Below are positions 1,369 through 30,655 of a stretch of 41,697 nucleotides of DNA, one piece after another. Origin of the DNA: Acidimicrobiaceae bacterium (GTDB lineage Bacteria; Actinomycetota; Acidimicrobiia; Acidimicrobiales; Ilumatobacteraceae). The translations under genes and the position numbers were made by a program. The stretch is from positions 1 through 41,697 of the forward strand of contig JANMFL010000194.1 in the NCBI GenBank assembly GCA_031377945.1, read 5' to 3'. The stretch's first letter is position 1; each line of letters opens with the position of its first letter. The notes under the pieces were generated by a model. That model ran no database searches and was not told the DNA's origin. It saw only the letters and a program-made list of their open reading frames with translations.

Positions 1369-2012
1369 GCCTCACGCCCGAACTGCGCACACACGCGCTG
1401 GCGGCCAAGGGGTTCATGCCGCCCGACGAAGGCGACGCCCTGTACGACGCGGCGGTCGCCGCTGGAGGGGCGGTTCCCGACCTGCCGTTCCTGGAGGTCG
1501 GCTCGTACTGCGGCCGGTCGACGGTGTGGCTCGGTGCTGCGGCGCGTGCCTGCGGCACGGTGCTGTTCGCCGTCGACCACCATCGCGGGAGCGAGGAGAA
1601 CCAGGCGGGTTGGGAACACCACGACACATCGTTGGTCGACGCTCGCATCGGGAAGATGGACACGCTGCCCTTCTTCCGGGTCACCATCCACGATGCCGGG
1701 CTGGAGGACGTCGTGTTCGCCGTCGTCGGTCAGTCGGCGCAGGTGGCGAAGGCGATGGCCACGCCGTTGGCGTTCCTGTTCATCGATGGCGGTCACGGCG
1801 ACGAGCCCGCCCGACTGGACTACGAGCGGTGGGTACCGCACGTGGTGGTCGGCGGCACGCTGGCCATCCACGACGTGTTCCCCGACCCGGCCGACGGGGG
1901 CCGACCGCCCTACGAGCAGATCTTCGCTCCCGCACTCGAGAGCGGTCGCTTCCGCCTGCTCAGCGCCACCGGCAGCCTGCGCGTCCTCCAACGCGTCGAT
2001 CGCCCCGCCTGA
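1353..2012 (+). CDS. Class I SAM-dependent methyltransferase (Methyltransf_24 / O-methyltransferase-like)
   Basis: The 219-aa ORF carries LEVGSYCGRSTVWLG (motif I), FAVDHHRGSEE, FLFIDGGHGDEPARLDYERW and GGTLAIHDVF. The track start at 1353 is TTG. In-frame GTG codons at 1362 and 1365 are alternatives. GTG 1365 overlaps the remnant's TGA as GTGA. Confidence 0.85.
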   Translation: MGPVVSLTPELRTHALAAKGFMPPDEGDALYDAAVAAGGAVPDLPFLEVGSYCGRSTVWLGAAARACGTVLFAVDHHRGSEENQAGWEHHDTSLVDARIGKMDTLPFFRVTIHDAGLEDVVFAVVGQSAQVAKAMATPLAFLFIDGGHGDEPARLDYERWVPHVVVGGTLAIHDVFPDPADGGRPPYEQIFAPALESGRFRLLSATGSLRVLQRVDRPA

Positions 2013-2014
2013 TT

Positions 2015-2042
2015 CCGCGCGAACTTAAGTTCCTGGTGAACG
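2015..2042 (+). repeat. Copy of a dispersed 26-28-bp intergenic repeat containing the palindrome GAACTTAAGTTC
   Basis: ccgcgcgaacttaagttcctggtgaacg is identical over 28 nt to 40871..40898. It starts 3 nt after the TGA of the plus-strand methyltransferase and lies between convergent genes. The stop of the minus-strand gene is at 2053. Confidence 0.85.
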
Positions 2043-2052
2043 CGGAGCGAAC

Positions 2053-3120
2053 TCAGGGGCGGGTGAAGAGGCGGCCGGTGGGGGTGTCGAGGAACGCAGC
2101 GAGGGGGATGTGCTCCTGGCGGAGGAAGCCCTGCTGCGGCAGCGTTCCCTGGCGCACCAACTCGATGACCGACGCCACCGACCCGGCGGTCGTCCAGGCG
2201 ATCGCCGTGCGCCGCAGGCCGGCGACCTCGATGGGGCGAAAGGCGCGCACGTACTCCATGCGCCGCAACTGACCGTGCACACTGCCCTCGGAGGCGACAT
2301 GGATGTACACGACGTCGTCGTCGACGGGTGGTTTGGCGTGGGTGAGGATCTCGCCCGCCAGCTCGCGTCGCTCACGCATGAGGAGTTCGTGGAAGAAGAA
2401 GTTCATCAGGTCCATGTGGCCCGGGTACCGAATGGTCTTGTAGTCGATGTTGCGGACCGAGCCGTGGTACGTCTCGCACATCGTGCCCAGCCCACCCGAT
2501 GTCGTGAACGCCTCGAGCTGGCGCCCGTCGATGATGAGCGTCTCCTTCCACTCCATCGACGAGACGGTCTTGCGAACGCCGTCCTCGATGACCTCGGCAT
2601 CGTTCAGGTACTCGTTCACCACGCCTTCGGGTGACCAGTTGAACGCGTAGCCGAGCAGTCCGGTGGGGTGCTGGGGGAGGGCGCCGACGCGGAGCCGAAT
2701 GGAACGGCACTCGTCGAACTGGGCGATCTGCGAGGCGGCGACGATGCCGACGAACCCTGGGGCCAGGCCGCACTGCGGGGCCATGATGCCCTTCGAGGTG
2801 TCGCTCATCTGAATGATGGCCTTCGTGGTGGGCACGTCCTCGGTGAGGTCGAAGTAGTGTAACCCCAGCCCGTGGGCGACCTCGGCCAGCCCCAGGTTCA
2901 GGTGGTACGGCAGACAACTCAGCACCGCCTGCGCCGAACCGATGCCGCGCTCCACTTCGTCGGCCGACCCCATGTCGGCGATGCGTGTGGGGAAGGGTTG
3001 TTGCACTCGCGGTGGTCGGGCATCGATGCCGACGACCTGGAAGCCGGCGTCGTGCAACAGGGTCGCGGCCAGCAGACCCACCTTGCCGAGGCCGAGGACG
3101 GCCACTCGTTCGAAGGACAT
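2053..3120 (-). CDS. Saccharopine dehydrogenase-family enzyme, L-lysine 6-dehydrogenase-like
   Basis: The ORF is 2053..3135. ATG 3120 gives MSFERVAVLGLGKVGLL, a Rossmann GxGxxG at the N-terminus. LEAFTTSGGLGTM and YKTIRYPGH match my recollection of the Geobacillus LysDH motifs (LEAFHTSGG, YKTIRYRGH). It lies 69 nt downstream of the ALDH7-type gene on the same strand. Confidence 0.8.
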   Translation of the reverse strand: MSFERVAVLGLGKVGLLAATLLHDAGFQVVGIDARPPRVQQPFPTRIADMGSADEVERGIGSAQAVLSCLPYHLNLGLAEVAHGLGLHYFDLTEDVPTTKAIIQMSDTSKGIMAPQCGLAPGFVGIVAASQIAQFDECRSIRLRVGALPQHPTGLLGYAFNWSPEGVVNEYLNDAEVIEDGVRKTVSSMEWKETLIIDGRQLEAFTTSGGLGTMCETYHGSVRNIDYKTIRYPGHMDLMNFFFHELLMRERRELAGEILTHAKPPVDDDVVYIHVASEGSVHGQLRRMEYVRAFRPIEVAGLRRTAIAWTTAGSVASVIELVRQGTLPQQGFLRQEHIPLAAFLDTPTGRLFTRP

Positions 3121-28168: not shown

Positions 28169-28257
28169 GAACCCTCGCCGAAACCGCTCCGAAACGCCTC
28201 CGGAACCCCTTCTGACCCCCTCCGGAACCCCTCCTGAACCCCTCCTGAACCCCTCCT
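28169..28257 (-). repeat. Eight phased ~11-bp repeats (minus-strand RGGAGGGGTTC), the last three identical; G-quadruplex-capable on the helicase sense strand
   Basis: Plus-strand units are gaaccctcgcc, gaaaccgctcc, gaaacgcctcc, (g), gaaccccttct, gaccccctccg, then gaacccctcct x3. C-runs of 4-5 nt at 28206, 28216, 28228, 28239 and 28250 are separated by 6-7 nt. Confidence 0.8.
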
Positions 28258-28288
28258 GTCGGCACCGAGCGCAGTCAGATGACGCCGT

Positions 28289-28321
28289 GTTCGGCAGCAA
28301 GCATGGGTGGATGGTAGGAAA
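28289..28321 (+). repeat. Left terminal inverted repeat
   Basis: GTTCGGCAGCAAGCATGGGTGGATGGTAGGAAA compared with the reverse complement of the right end, GTTCGGCAGCAAGCATGGGTGATTGGTAGGAAA. 31 of 33 positions match. Confidence 0.85.
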
Positions 28322-28353
28322 CTCCGCCACACCCCGTGACGACACTGGCTTGT

Positions 28354-29814
28354 ATGGGAGGCGAAGACCAGCTCGTGACCCGAGCGGTGATGTTCACGCT
28401 CGACGTGTCGCCGGCCCAGGATCAGATGCTGCGCAACTACTGCGGTGCAGCCAGGTTCGGGTACAACTGGGTGCTCGACCAGGCGACAGAGAACCTTGCG
28501 ACACGCTCGGCCGAACGTGAAGCGGGCGTTGCCGAGGACCGGTTGACGCCGGCGATGTCATGGTCTGCATACTCATTCCGCAAACAGTTCAACGCCGAGA
28601 AGACGGACGCCGCACCGTGGGCTGGTGAGGTCGCGAAGCACTGCTTCGACACCGGGATCAGCCAGTCTGCCGACGCCTTGAAGAACTGGTCCCTGTCACG
28701 CAAGGGCGAGCGTGCAGGTGCCCGGATGGGGTTCCCCAAGTTCAAGTCCCGCAAGACCGCGAAGCTGTCCGTGAGCTTCGTCGAGCTCAACCATCAGCTG
28801 TCGTGGTTCCACGACTCAAGACACGCGGTCCGGTTGATGCTGCCCCAGGCGCTGCTGCAGTCGAAGGACCGGCATGTGCGCGCCAAGATGCAGCAGCTCG
28901 TCTGGTTGCACACGATCGAGTCGACCCGACGGCTGTACCGGCTCGTCGAACAGGATCGGGCCACGATCCAGAAGGTGACGATCTCCTACACCGGGGGCCG
29001 TTGGCAAGCGTCGTTCCAGGTTCGTTACCGGGTCGACGCAGCACCGCAGAAGCGCGGTCACACCCGCATCGGTGGTGCATGCGGTGTCGATCTCGGTGTG
29101 ACCCATCTGACGACCCTGTCACGGGCGGTACCGGGTGTCAGCGACATTGAAGGTCACGTGTCGAACCCGCGACCGCTCGCGGTACAGCTCCACCGTCTGC
29201 GGGACCTCGACCGACGGTTGGCACGCTGCCAGGCCGGATCGAAGAACCGGGCCAAGCTCGTACGCCGGCGGGCCAGGTTGCACGGCCGGATCACCAAGAC
29301 CCGTGCGGCGGCACAGCATGCATTGGCCAACGAGCTCGCGGCACGGTTCGACCTGGTCGGCATCGAAGATCTCAACGTGCGTGGCATGTCGCACAACCGG
29401 CCGCTCGCCCGCGCCCTCGCCGACGCCGGTTTGGGCCAGCTCACCGAGTTCATCATCACCGAATGCGCCGACCGTGGCACACCGCTCGTGAAGGTGGGCC
29501 GGTTCTATCCGTCGTCGAAGACCTGCTCGAACTGTGGGACCGTGACAGCCAAGCTGTCCCTCAGCCAGAGGACCTTCGACTGCACCCAATGCGGCATCAG
29601 CGTCGATCGTGACGTGAACGCTGCACGCAACATCGAGCGTGAAGCCATCCGGCTCCACGCTCAACAGCAAGCCAGCCTCGAGCTGGAGGTCGCCGGGCTA
29701 CGACCGGAGACTCGAAACGCTGACCGGAGAACACACAAGACCTCCCCCACCAAGGTGGGGGAGGCAGTGTTCGTTGATGGCAGAACCAGGCAGCCGCACA
29801 CTCGTGTGGCATGA
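28354..29814 (+). CDS. tnpB: TnpB (IS200/IS605-family OrfB, RuvC-like RNA-guided endonuclease family)
   Basis: The track ORF starts at GTG 28336. ATG 28354 and GTG 28375 (VTRAVMFTLDVSPAQDQML, the usual TnpB N-terminus) are alternatives. The RuvC triad looks intact: GVDLGV (Asp), GIEDLNVRGM (Glu) and DRDVNAARNI (Asp). The zinc ribbon is CSNCG...CTQCG. Confidence 0.9.
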   Translation: MGGEDQLVTRAVMFTLDVSPAQDQMLRNYCGAARFGYNWVLDQATENLATRSAEREAGVAEDRLTPAMSWSAYSFRKQFNAEKTDAAPWAGEVAKHCFDTGISQSADALKNWSLSRKGERAGARMGFPKFKSRKTAKLSVSFVELNHQLSWFHDSRHAVRLMLPQALLQSKDRHVRAKMQQLVWLHTIESTRRLYRLVEQDRATIQKVTISYTGGRWQASFQVRYRVDAAPQKRGHTRIGGACGVDLGVTHLTTLSRAVPGVSDIEGHVSNPRPLAVQLHRLRDLDRRLARCQAGSKNRAKLVRRRARLHGRITKTRAAAQHALANELAARFDLVGIEDLNVRGMSHNRPLARALADAGLGQLTEFIITECADRGTPLVKVGRFYPSSKTCSNCGTVTAKLSLSQRTFDCTQCGISVDRDVNAARNIEREAIRLHAQQQASLELEVAGLRPETRNADRRTHKTSPTKVGEAVFVDGRTRQPHTRVA

Positions 29815-29875
29815 GACCTGGACGGGCCGACGGCAACGCCGGCCAGTACGGACAGTGAGCACCGAGCGGCAGGAT

Positions 29876-29908
29876 TTTCCTACCAATCACCCATGCTTGC
29901 TGCCGAAC
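29876..29908 (-). repeat. Right terminal inverted repeat
   Basis: tttcctaccaatcacccatgcttgctgccgaac is the partner of 28289-28321. It is followed by tt and then the 9-bp direct repeat. Confidence 0.85.
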
Positions 29909-30655
29909 TTAGATGACGCAGAGTTGCAAGCTGCCGGCCTGCAGGTTCGCGGTGGCGTCGACGAGTTCGGCCGGGGTCGGCTCGGTGAGTGTGGGGTCGT
30001 GGGGCCGAGTGCCGTGGCGACGGAATCCGATGACCTTGACCCGCATCGCAGGGTCGACCGAGGCCAACCACTCGCCGGTTCGACGCAGCAGATCGGGGGC
30101 GTCGTTGACGCCCTTCACGATGAGCAGGCGCACCTCGTACAGCCGGCCGATCGAGGCGAGCAGTTCGATGCTGCGCAGCACGGGTTCGTTGGACTGCCCG
30201 GTCATCGTGGTGTGGATGGCGTCGTCGAAGCACTTCAGGTCGATCATCGCCCCGTCGGTCACCGGCGCCAGACGTTCCCAGGTGGCGGTGTCGGTGGCGC
30301 CGTTCGAGTCCACGAAACACCGCAGCCGCGACAGTCGTCGGTCCTGCTTGACGGCCGTGAACAGTGCATGCACGAAGTCGGTCTGCAGCGTCGCCTCGCC
30401 GCCCGAGACCGTCAGTCCGCTGATGAACGGTTCGGCGCGGCGGATCTTCATCAGCAGGTCGCCCACGTTCGTCCGGAAGTGCTCACCCTCGGCCAACGGA
30501 ATGGTCTGCGGGTTGTGGCAGGCGATGCAGTCGAAGTTGCAACCCTGGAGGAACACCACGAACCGGTTGCCCGGGCCGTCGACGTTGCTGAACGTGATCG
30601 TGTCGGCGACGTACCCGACGGTGGCGGTCATCGGCGGGTGACTCGCCGGGGTCAT
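29909..30655 (-). CDS. yjjW: Glycyl-radical enzyme activating enzyme (radical SAM, YjjW-like)
   Basis: SNVDGPGNRFVVFLQGCNFDCIACHNP carries the CxxxCxxC cluster, and SGGEATLQ is also present. Three in-frame starts exist: GTG 30673, ATG 30655 and ATG 30631. The two ATG starts arise from a 24-bp tandem duplication. The stop TAA (29909-29911) is partly supplied by the IS end. Confidence 0.85.
   Translation of the reverse strand: MTPASHPPMTATVGYVADTITFSNVDGPGNRFVVFLQGCNFDCIACHNPQTIPLAEGEHFRTNVGDLLMKIRRAEPFISGLTVSGGEATLQTDFVHALFTAVKQDRRLSRLRCFVDSNGATDTATWERLAPVTDGAMIDLKCFDDAIHTTMTGQSNEPVLRSIELLASIGRLYEVRLLIVKGVNDAPDLLRRTGEWLASVDPAMRVKVIGFRRHGTRPHDPTLTEPTPAELVDATANLQAGSLQLCVI

Follow-up and report, generated by a model that had tools for sequence, protein, structure and literature searches.

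An IS607-like tnpB gene carried by a terminal-inverted-repeat element with a 9-bp target duplication at a rebuilt stop codon in an Acidimicrobiaceae bacterium

The window examined here is the whole 41,697-nt stretch of contig JANMFL010000194.1 from an Acidimicrobiaceae bacterium (assembly GCA_031377945.1), and the subject of this report is a transposon unit of 1625 bp, or ~1.6 kb (28286-29910), which carries a tnpB gene between terminal inverted repeats (TIRs) and lies against the 3′ end of a gene for a radical-SAM glycyl-radical-enzyme activase (Table 1). A previous description made from the letters alone, referred to below as the sequence-only reading, had given the TIRs as 33 bp long with 31 matches. 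This is borne out (31/33 over the 33-nt span, the two mismatches being GA versus AT at arm positions 22-23), and a repeat search of the window extends the arms to 37 nt, of which 34 match (92% complementary). Each strand of the 41.7-kb window has a single exact copy of the outer 21-mer, GTTCGGCAGCAAGCATGGGTG, which appears in 0/100 shuffles. The same reading had flanked the whole unit with a 9-bp direct repeat, AGATGACGC; its coordinates proved right, although the repeat does not abut the arms, being separated from them by CGT on the left and TT on the right. Its statement that no transposase lies inside the element also stands, tnpB being the sole gene accommodated within 1.6 kb.

The activase gene is located downstream of a YjjI-like gene. 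Its open reading frame (ORF) now terminates in ...TGC GTC ATC TAA, the AA of TAA being supplied by the element's TT, and the left copy of the duplication reads ...GTC ATC TGA. Empty sites were found by tracing the contigs of the activase's closest homologues (83-86% identical). One of these loci, L140, has the same gene order as the window, namely the YjjI-like gene, the activase, a helicase and a DtxR-type (Fe_dep_repress) repressor, with a gap of 59 nt and no element between activase and helicase; two others, L141 and L142, cover only a short stretch, the activase and the ORF downstream, and agree with L140 there. The activase of each of the three ends in ...CTCTG(T/C)GTC(A/G)TC TGA, present once, and the element is absent. 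Given these single-copy ...TGA ends at syntenic loci, both the 9-bp duplication and the change from TGA to TAA arose by insertion. Hence, the element is a true insertion and the 9-mer is derived from the target. The ancestral activase stop was TGA, the element entered between its T and its GA, and the terminal TT of the element rebuilt the stop as TAA, with the host protein left unaltered. The sequence-only reading had placed the insertion exactly at the stop codon and had proposed a comparison with related genomes lacking it; the TAA/TGA ends and the three empty orthologous loci, each with one repeat copy and a TGA stop, support that placement.

The element belongs to a widespread, unnamed TIR family that occurs for the most part in Acidimicrobiia. 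Scanning one genome per species with a protein profile gave 46 loci, and lookups of single proteins added to these; TnpB homologues at 55-84% identity were found in metagenome assemblies of Acidimicrobiia and of other Actinomycetota. The family rule was drawn from 27 non-redundant loci in Acidimicrobiia metagenome-assembled genomes, whose TnpBs are ~40-80% identical. Read in tnpB orientation, their layout is B-T-C-[A-G-N5-G-N]-Y-G-R-GTTCGGCAGCAAGG ... CCTTGCTGCCGAAC-Y-T-[A-G-N5-G-N]-Y-G-A, where the bracketed 9-mer recurs as a direct repeat, exact or nearly so, at a constant offset from the TIR core, and the inverted repeats are of the type GTTCGGCA(G/A).... Immediately left of the repeat stand a T (26/27 loci) and a C (26/27), and YT follows the right end in 27/27. 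The sequence-only reading had allowed that the repeats might be coincidental, and had raised the prospect of a conserved motif resembling a target-adjacent motif (TAM) beside the left end: coincidence is not supported, as the 27 loci do have both inverted and direct repeats, and the conserved TC is a candidate for such a motif.

In this layout, YTA reads as TAA or TAG on the opposite strand, and TCA as TGA. In 23 of the 27 loci, the rebuilt stop ends a reading frame that is open for 86 codons or more, and in 21 of the 27 that frame has coding-type GC content at third codon positions as well. At the loci with gene calls, 4/4 stops belong to convergent Pfam-bearing genes, encoding the activase, an RDD protein, a transaldolase and an acyltransferase.

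Close relatives at differing sites support mobility. The nearest relative of the window's element, L265, has a TnpB 84% identical, the window's TIR variant and the same TT, and lies at a different site. Likewise, L024 and L026 (DNA 96.6% identical) occupy different sites, as do L018 and L036 (91.7% identical). To the left of GTTCGG, L018 and L036 both carry TGA, against CTA and TTA at their targets, while L024 and L026 both carry CGG, against TGA and TCA. Given that the trinucleotide is common within each pair despite the differing targets, the YGR is element-borne and the duplication is 9 bp. A duplication of 10 or 12 bp was rejected, as positions 10-12 match at about chance and YGR travels with the element. 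L265 and three left-decayed loci with direct repeats of 12-13 nt (L027, L029 and L031) are slightly awkward for a 9-bp reading. These three have lost the outer left arm (~100-130 nt upstream of tnpB at 3001), and one idea is that a 12-nt match beside TC makes the left junction a target of the element's own TnpB.

Tandem copies at L022 and L181 are spaced by exactly 14 nt, the sum of YT, the 9-mer and YGR. This spacing would suit a site-specific integrative element, in which a tyrosine or serine integrase acting in trans would use the 9-mer as the attP/attB crossover core. Insertion at the 3′ ends of genes with the gene end restored, as is known for integrative elements at tRNA genes, would suit it as well, and so would the resemblance of the target to the abutted ends (gYCG..TC versus GCCGAACYT). 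However, each locus has its own 9-mer, also among copies that are 92-97% identical, which rules out an invariant core brought in by the element; moreover, reciprocal one-point recombination cannot duplicate target bases. We consider an integrase extremely unlikely. As an observation apart, the copies at L022 (86-127) and L181 (2055-2100) are arranged head to tail with an internal 9-mer that differs from the visible outer flank, which would fit a dimer later moved as a unit, rather than a simple circle junction.

An exact scan of genome contigs with the window's 21-nt arm gave no match; the window's arm variant is lineage-specific. Scanning viral contigs with a 16-mer of the TIR gave 89 single matches and no pairs, and these were treated as chance; BLASTN of the consensus arm against PLSDB plasmids gave no match, and a full-text literature search for the arm sequence gave irrelevant matches only. 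A typical member (L007, L266) lies on CAYZFZ010000018.1, a GTDB contig labelled 'uncultured Bifidobacterium sp.'. All other hosts are Acidimicrobiia or unclassified Actinomycetota, and the label could reflect a binning or labelling error, or else a transfer.

The protein encoded by the element has the Pfam domains PF12323 (HTH_OrfB_IS605), PF01385 (OrfB_IS605, RuvC) and PF07282 (Cas12f1-like_TNB), all above their cut-offs, and scores 219.7 bits with the NCBIfam model guided_TnpB (cut-off 100). In an alignment of 35 homologues, D234, E326, D408 and C379/C382/C398/C401 are invariant, in agreement with the earlier claim of an intact RuvC triad and zinc ribbon. The best NCBIfam model is IS607_TnpB (NF038280) at 307.7 bits, below its cut-off of 350, while NF038281 reaches 169.5 bits against a cut-off of 425. 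The version of the gene caller (P0001) starts at 28390 and has 474 aa; the IS607_TnpB profile, of 431 positions, matches its residues 2-448, with no additional domain. The nearest annotated IS607-type TnpBs are 33-39% identical and are named 'IS607 family element TnpB' by the Prokaryotic Genome Annotation Pipeline (PGAP). Two IS607-type relatives that were checked, L143 and L144, have no terminal repeats.

Such a protein might be taken as the mark of an ordinary solo tnpB of the IS607 or IS200/IS605 kind, moved by a serine or Y1 TnpA, with the repeats as by-products of the omega-RNA or of chance. The best NCBIfam model and the PGAP names of the relatives agree with this, as does the large imperfect palindrome (stem-loop SL4) at the right end. 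On the other hand, a target-derived 9-bp repeat is present in at least 27 loci and is confirmed by empty sites, the right end reads AAC-YT rather than GG, and the two more distant IS607-type relatives that were checked are without terminal repeats. No tnpA was seen in ~50 loci, neither a serine-recombinase tnpA beside tnpB nor a Y1 tnpA. Elements of the IS607 and IS200/IS605 families have neither TIRs nor target duplications, and recombination of IS607 takes place at GG cores, with a TGGG or GGG TAM (10.1101/2023.11.20.567912; PMC10711439; PMC13565253). An ordinary member of either family is, in our judgement, most improbable.

The alignment of the 27 left ends has a conserved GTCACACCC box, gACa.Tg, followed by caTG, and the corresponding sequence in the window is a -10-like box, for which a sigma-70 consensus scan found nothing. 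The tnpB mRNA is probably leaderless, judging from these motifs, with its start inside the inner boundary of the left arm. With the start placed there by box and ATG, the left arm should be missing from the mRNA, and such a transcript disfavours RNA-level pairing between the arms, which had been considered.

At the other end of the gene, the sequence-only reading had expected a guide RNA across ~29650-29910 and had proposed a covariance search for an omega-RNA. A structured scaffold was indeed found at ~29689-29910, and Rfam RF03015 (Transposase-2 RNA) matches in full length at 29776-29848 on the + strand with 46.8 bits, above the gathering score of 42.7 (E = 8e-8). No other Rfam family matched, and there is no intron in the element. 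In an alignment of 27 right ends, 25 of 34 base pairs changed on both sides, in three stem-loops; the covariation score is 0.512, compared with 0.203 in shuffles (0/500 reach 0.512) and ~0.08 with slid partners. The window sequence itself folds with z = -4.84. The terminal stem SL4 is formed by an internal GTTCGnCAGC, just after SL3, and the terminal GCTGnCGAAC in nearly all members' single-sequence folds, with compensatory changes in L024 and L035; RNAalifold on the ragged alignment did not call this stem, whereas the single-sequence folds did. On this folding model, the outer right arm serves both as an end of the transposon and as the final helix of the scaffold. The left arm mirrors the right one, and both vary together between lineages.

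The agreement between empty site and right junction begins only at the A of the duplication, which predicts a guide that starts at 29911, a YT that belongs to the scaffold and a TAM that ends in TC. The predicted guide, AGATGACGCAGAGTTG, takes its length of 16 nt from other TnpBs. Placing YT in the scaffold would parallel IS607, where the nucleotide flanking the right end is part of the scaffold (PMC10711439). As a side observation on the minus strand, the SL1 hairpin followed by CTTGTGTGTT (29740-29765) scores as terminator-like, at a distance of ~150 nt beyond the new stop of the activase; shuffled sequences contain no fewer such sites, and the signal may be meaningless.

The position of the guide suggests a further explanation, in which TnpB and its omega-RNA regulate or protect the neighbouring host gene and transposon behaviour has been lost. 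In every case the guide lies antisense to a convergent gene at its 3′ end and is complementary to the last codons of that gene, and SL1 could act for the host gene as the terminator-like structure just described. Exapted TnpBs of the TldR type, however, have lost nuclease activity, and the RuvC triad is invariant here. Moreover, the target genes are unrelated to each other (activase, transaldolase, acyltransferase and RDD protein), related copies occupy different sites, the site is empty in sister genomes, and terminator-like sites do not exceed their number in shuffles. Exaptation for a host function is very unlikely.

With a mobile element thus indicated, the question arises of what moves it. 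No adjacent transposase is present in ~50 tnpB loci (~3-kb flanks), and the loci that apparently lack a left end have a decayed one and no extra genes. One member, L025 (1602-4502, 2.9 kb), has normal ends, a 9-bp repeat matching at 8/9 positions, and a nested transposase. The extra 1.4 kb of this member holds an ORF (1648-2505, minus strand) between the left arm and tnpB, which encodes an IS110-family transposase (Pfam DEDD_Tnp_IS110 and Transposase_20) and covers just the C-terminal two thirds of the DEDD domain; this transposase was rejected as a nested insertion and an implausible partner.

A metagenome scan with an 18-mer of the TIR revealed relatives without tnpB; the counts that follow hold among the matches listed. 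About 15 of 80 loci are real members, most others being chance matches in coding sequence (peptide VFGSKVS). At least six distinct copies have the same TIRs and no tnpB (Table 1), comprising miniature inverted-repeat transposable elements (MITEs) and cargo-bearing cassettes, and all six carry TC and the 9-bp repeat. Their right-end dinucleotides are CT, CT, TC, TC, CG and GC. A stop codon is rebuilt in 31 of 33 copies (the 27 with tnpB and these six). A TC at the right end would recreate the left flank of the target; it is found only in two distinct cassettes without an omega-RNA and in 0/28 tnpB copies, a pattern that hints at self-avoidance.

Taken together, these results lead us to a non-autonomous TIR element with a target-site duplication, which carries an IS607-type tnpB/omega-RNA unit as a retention module and is moved in trans by a DDE-like transposase. 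We think this explanation probable, with a good deal of doubt remaining. A transposase encoded elsewhere would recognise the ~35-bp inverted repeats and insert the element after a 9-bp staggered cut, as DDE-type enzymes make, at sites that resemble gYCGnssTC|AGN5GN|YGA and the element's own abutted ends. The tnpB gene, together with the omega-RNA across its 3′ end and the right arm, would then act as a homing module: guided by sequence taken from the right flank, TnpB would cut an empty allele (...TC + AGATGACGCAGAGTTG), and a filled copy would serve as template for the repair, while the filled right junction would be spared because its TC is replaced by TT. The TIRs and fixed-length duplication that generally mark DDE-type elements are present in the 27 tnpB loci and in at least six MITE or cargo copies. 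The non-autonomous TIR element carrying tnpB that the sequence-only reading had suggested is thus backed by the MITEs and cassettes with the same ends and by the lack of an adjacent transposase in ~50 tnpB loci; of the DDE-type signature that it had claimed, the TIRs and the duplication are there, but with no DDE transposase found, 'DDE-type' describes an expected enzyme.

Target choice may rest in part on likeness to the element's own left end. The last codons of the activase, AGAGTTGCAAGC (+ strand, 29920-29935), resemble the left end CGTGTTCGGCAGCAAGC without CGGCA (28289-28302), and the right flank of L215 likewise runs on with GTTCGC. As for the stop codons, 21/27 observed sites (78%) fall on coding-like stops, compared with 9/27 (33%) for background occurrences of the strict target motif, a comparison that is partly circular, the motif having been derived from observed (surviving) sites; TCAG alone gives 5.5%.

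Several points weigh against the proposed mechanism. A transposase with these ends is absent from every locus examined (~3-kb flanks, and the metagenome matches listed), so the partner and its family are hypothetical. DDE ends are normally most conserved at their tips, and the terminal bases of this family (YGR on the left, YT on the right) vary and do not mirror each other. Left and right arms diverge in step from lineage to lineage, for which one transposase acting in trans offers no obvious explanation. Finally, the bias towards stop codons may be due partly to selection rather than targeting.

The parallel change of the arms bears on another possibility, namely that TnpB, through its RuvC/RNase-H fold and with or without the omega-RNA, recognises both ends and itself transposes the element, and also moves the MITEs and cassettes. 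The sole factors that the element encodes track its ends: the right arm lies in the terminal stem of the omega-RNA, and the left arm, its reverse complement, varies along with it. In addition, tnpB elements are the only members bounded by these repeats that encode an enzyme (among the matches listed), and the 243-bp MITE retains the whole omega-RNA. If true, this would be the first TnpB to act as a transposase, beyond a homing nuclease. The geometry, however, is at odds with this. Cleavage by TnpB and Cas12 nucleases falls at the end of the R-loop away from the TAM, roughly 15 nt or more from it, unlike a stagger at 0 and +9 from the conserved TC. Moreover, new sites cannot be selected by a guide that derives from the present flank, the protein lacks any additional DNA-binding domain, 9-bp repeats also flank cassettes devoid of both tnpB and omega-RNA, and TnpB is dispensable for transposition in the IS608 and ISDra2 systems (PMC13565253). 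An autonomous TnpB is therefore unlikely, and a transposase acting in trans remains the explanation that we prefer.

Between the left flank of the element and the start codon of the helicase lies an array of seven tandem copies of an 11-nt unit, AACCCCTCCTG (28182-28258, 83% matches, visible from ~28160). The array is missing from the orthologous 59-nt intergenic region of L140 and seems to have grown out of a GGTTCGCG segment that is common to the window and L140.

Table 1. Coordinates of the element, its flanks and its predicted RNA in the window, and of tnpB-less relatives at their own loci
Feature	Position	Strand	Remarks
Original activase TGA stop (TCA on + strand), stranded left of the insertion	28275..28277	-	Orthologues end ...ATC TGA
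TC 5′ of the duplication, conserved dinucleotide, candidate TAM end	28275-28276		T 26/27, C 26/27 across loci
Left copy of the 9-bp target-site duplication, AGATGACGC	28277..28285	.	Single copy at empty L140, L141, L142
Element-borne trinucleotide CGT (family consensus YGR)	28286..28288	+	Shared by close pairs despite different targets
Left TIR; outer GTTCGGCAGCAAG near-invariant in the family	28289..28325	+	Repeat search, family alignment
-10-like box GACACT	28341..28346	+	7 nt upstream of conserved ATG
tnpB, 486 aa from conserved ATG	28354..29814	+	RuvC D-E-D triad and C4 zinc finger intact
Predicted omega-RNA scaffold, overlapping tnpB 3′ end, to right end	29689..29910	+	Rfam match, covariation, folding
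SL1	29739-29765		
SL2	29786-29821		
SL3	29824-29844		
Terminal stem SL4	arms 29846-29861 and 29894-29908		
Right TIR; also predicted 3′ arm and loop of the omega-RNA terminal stem	29872..29908	-	
Element-borne TT (family YT)	29909..29910	+	Y 27/27, T 27/27; L265 likewise TT
Right copy of the 9-bp target-site duplication	29911..29919	.	
Predicted omega-RNA guide, AGATGACGCAGAGTTG	29911..29926	+	Matches empty site 3′ of ...GTC
Target gene: radical-SAM glycyl-radical-enzyme activase, yjjW-like, 248 aa, P0121	29909..30655	-	Stop now TAA, 29909-29911
MITE, 243 bp	L147 6766-7008		Left arm fused to complete guide-RNA region
MITE, 351 bp	L167 1273-1623		Part of guide-RNA region
Cassette, 551 bp	L157 2533-3083		Glyoxalase-family gene
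Cassette, 681 bp	L201 3018-3698		Glyoxalase-family gene
Cassette, 892 bp	L194 8657-9548		ORF(s) without Pfam match
Cassette, 1785 bp	L215 539-2323		ORF(s) without Pfam match

Solo tnpB genes far outnumber the copies beside a TnpA, and their movement is largely assumed. The present family is a clean case, with sharp ends, a fixed 9-bp duplication, empty sites, and MITE and cassette derivatives. It also offers a form of insertion that avoids harm, in which a TGA stop is split and a replacement stop is brought along, and the replacement dinucleotide differs from the target's TC, the putative end of the TAM; a literature search for insertion sequences overlapping stop codons found no description of this. 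The overlap of a transposon end with the terminal stem of a guide RNA would give compact sequence a dual function in DNA and RNA. A testable prediction is that this TnpB uses a short TAM ending in C (...TC) together with a defined scaffold.

Of the transposase families linked to TnpB, IS630 duplicates TA, and ISL2 and IS1031, subgroups of IS5, duplicate 2-3 bp; in this they are unlike the element described here, with its 9 bp. Prokaryotic TnpBs inside TIR transposons have already been reported, among them solo copies for which mobilisation in trans is proposed, in branches DDE-1 to DDE-6 (Altae-Tran et al. 2023, PMC10691335), and IS630, ISL2 and IS1031 are the partner families of DDE-linked TnpBs (PMC13565253). 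The architecture that the sequence-only reading had thought possibly undescribed is therefore known as far as a TIR-bounded tnpB is concerned (PMC10691335); what is new, as far as sequence comparison goes, is the 9-bp duplication, the splitting of a stop codon with its restoration, and the absence of any transposase found. Like the DDE-linked elements, the present one has tnpB within ~250 bp of a symmetrical end (PMC10691335, PMC13565253), solo copies that share ends with others, and an omega-RNA that reads out of the right end. In contrast to them, no partner transposase is seen, the TnpB is closest in sequence to the IS607 type, and stops are split and rebuilt.

Among IS607 elements, which pair a serine-recombinase TnpA with TnpB (IS1535, ISXfa1 and CboIStron), lies the closest TnpB sequence family. 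The likeness extends to an omega-RNA with consecutive stem-loops upstream of the guide, to fixed flank nucleotides apparently absorbed into the scaffold, and to a look-alike of the TAM at the right junction that avoids self-cutting (PMC10711439; 10.1101/2023.11.20.567912). The element differs from them in its ~35-bp TIRs, 9-bp duplication, AAC-YT right end and target TC, and in that no serine recombinase was found. IS200/IS605 elements, including the tnpB-only IS1341 group, have asymmetric ends with subterminal hairpins and insert 3′ of a tetra- or pentanucleotide, in contrast to the TIRs and 9 bp here. Because IS607 and IS200/IS605 elements lack TIRs and duplications, membership as a transposon of either family fails on the features of the sequence.

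Classical MITEs and mobile insertion cassettes (MICs) offer a different parallel. MICs bear passenger genes and are mobilised in trans by the transposase of a cognate insertion sequence. As in MITEs and MICs, short TIR derivatives here share their ends and duplication length with a longer element, but the classical longer element encodes a transposase, and here it encodes TnpB only. IStrons (IS605 or IS607 elements with a group I intron) resemble the family in that a TnpB element renders its insertions harmless to host genes; they splice out of the mRNA, whereas harm is avoided here at the DNA level through the stop codon, with no intron.

The nearest functional parallel, by analogy, is the Fanzor-only TIR element. 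Transposons with TIRs and target-site duplications such as that of SfAV Fanzor1 are likewise non-autonomous and nuclease-only, with a TIR within the guide-RNA scaffold (PMC10711439). They are eukaryotic or viral and hold a duplication of fixed sequence inside the scaffold; the present elements are bacterial and have a variable duplication, which would lie in the guide. An IS607-type TnpB/omega-RNA module would have moved, in bacteria, onto another transposition chassis, in parallel with the path that has been proposed for Fanzors.

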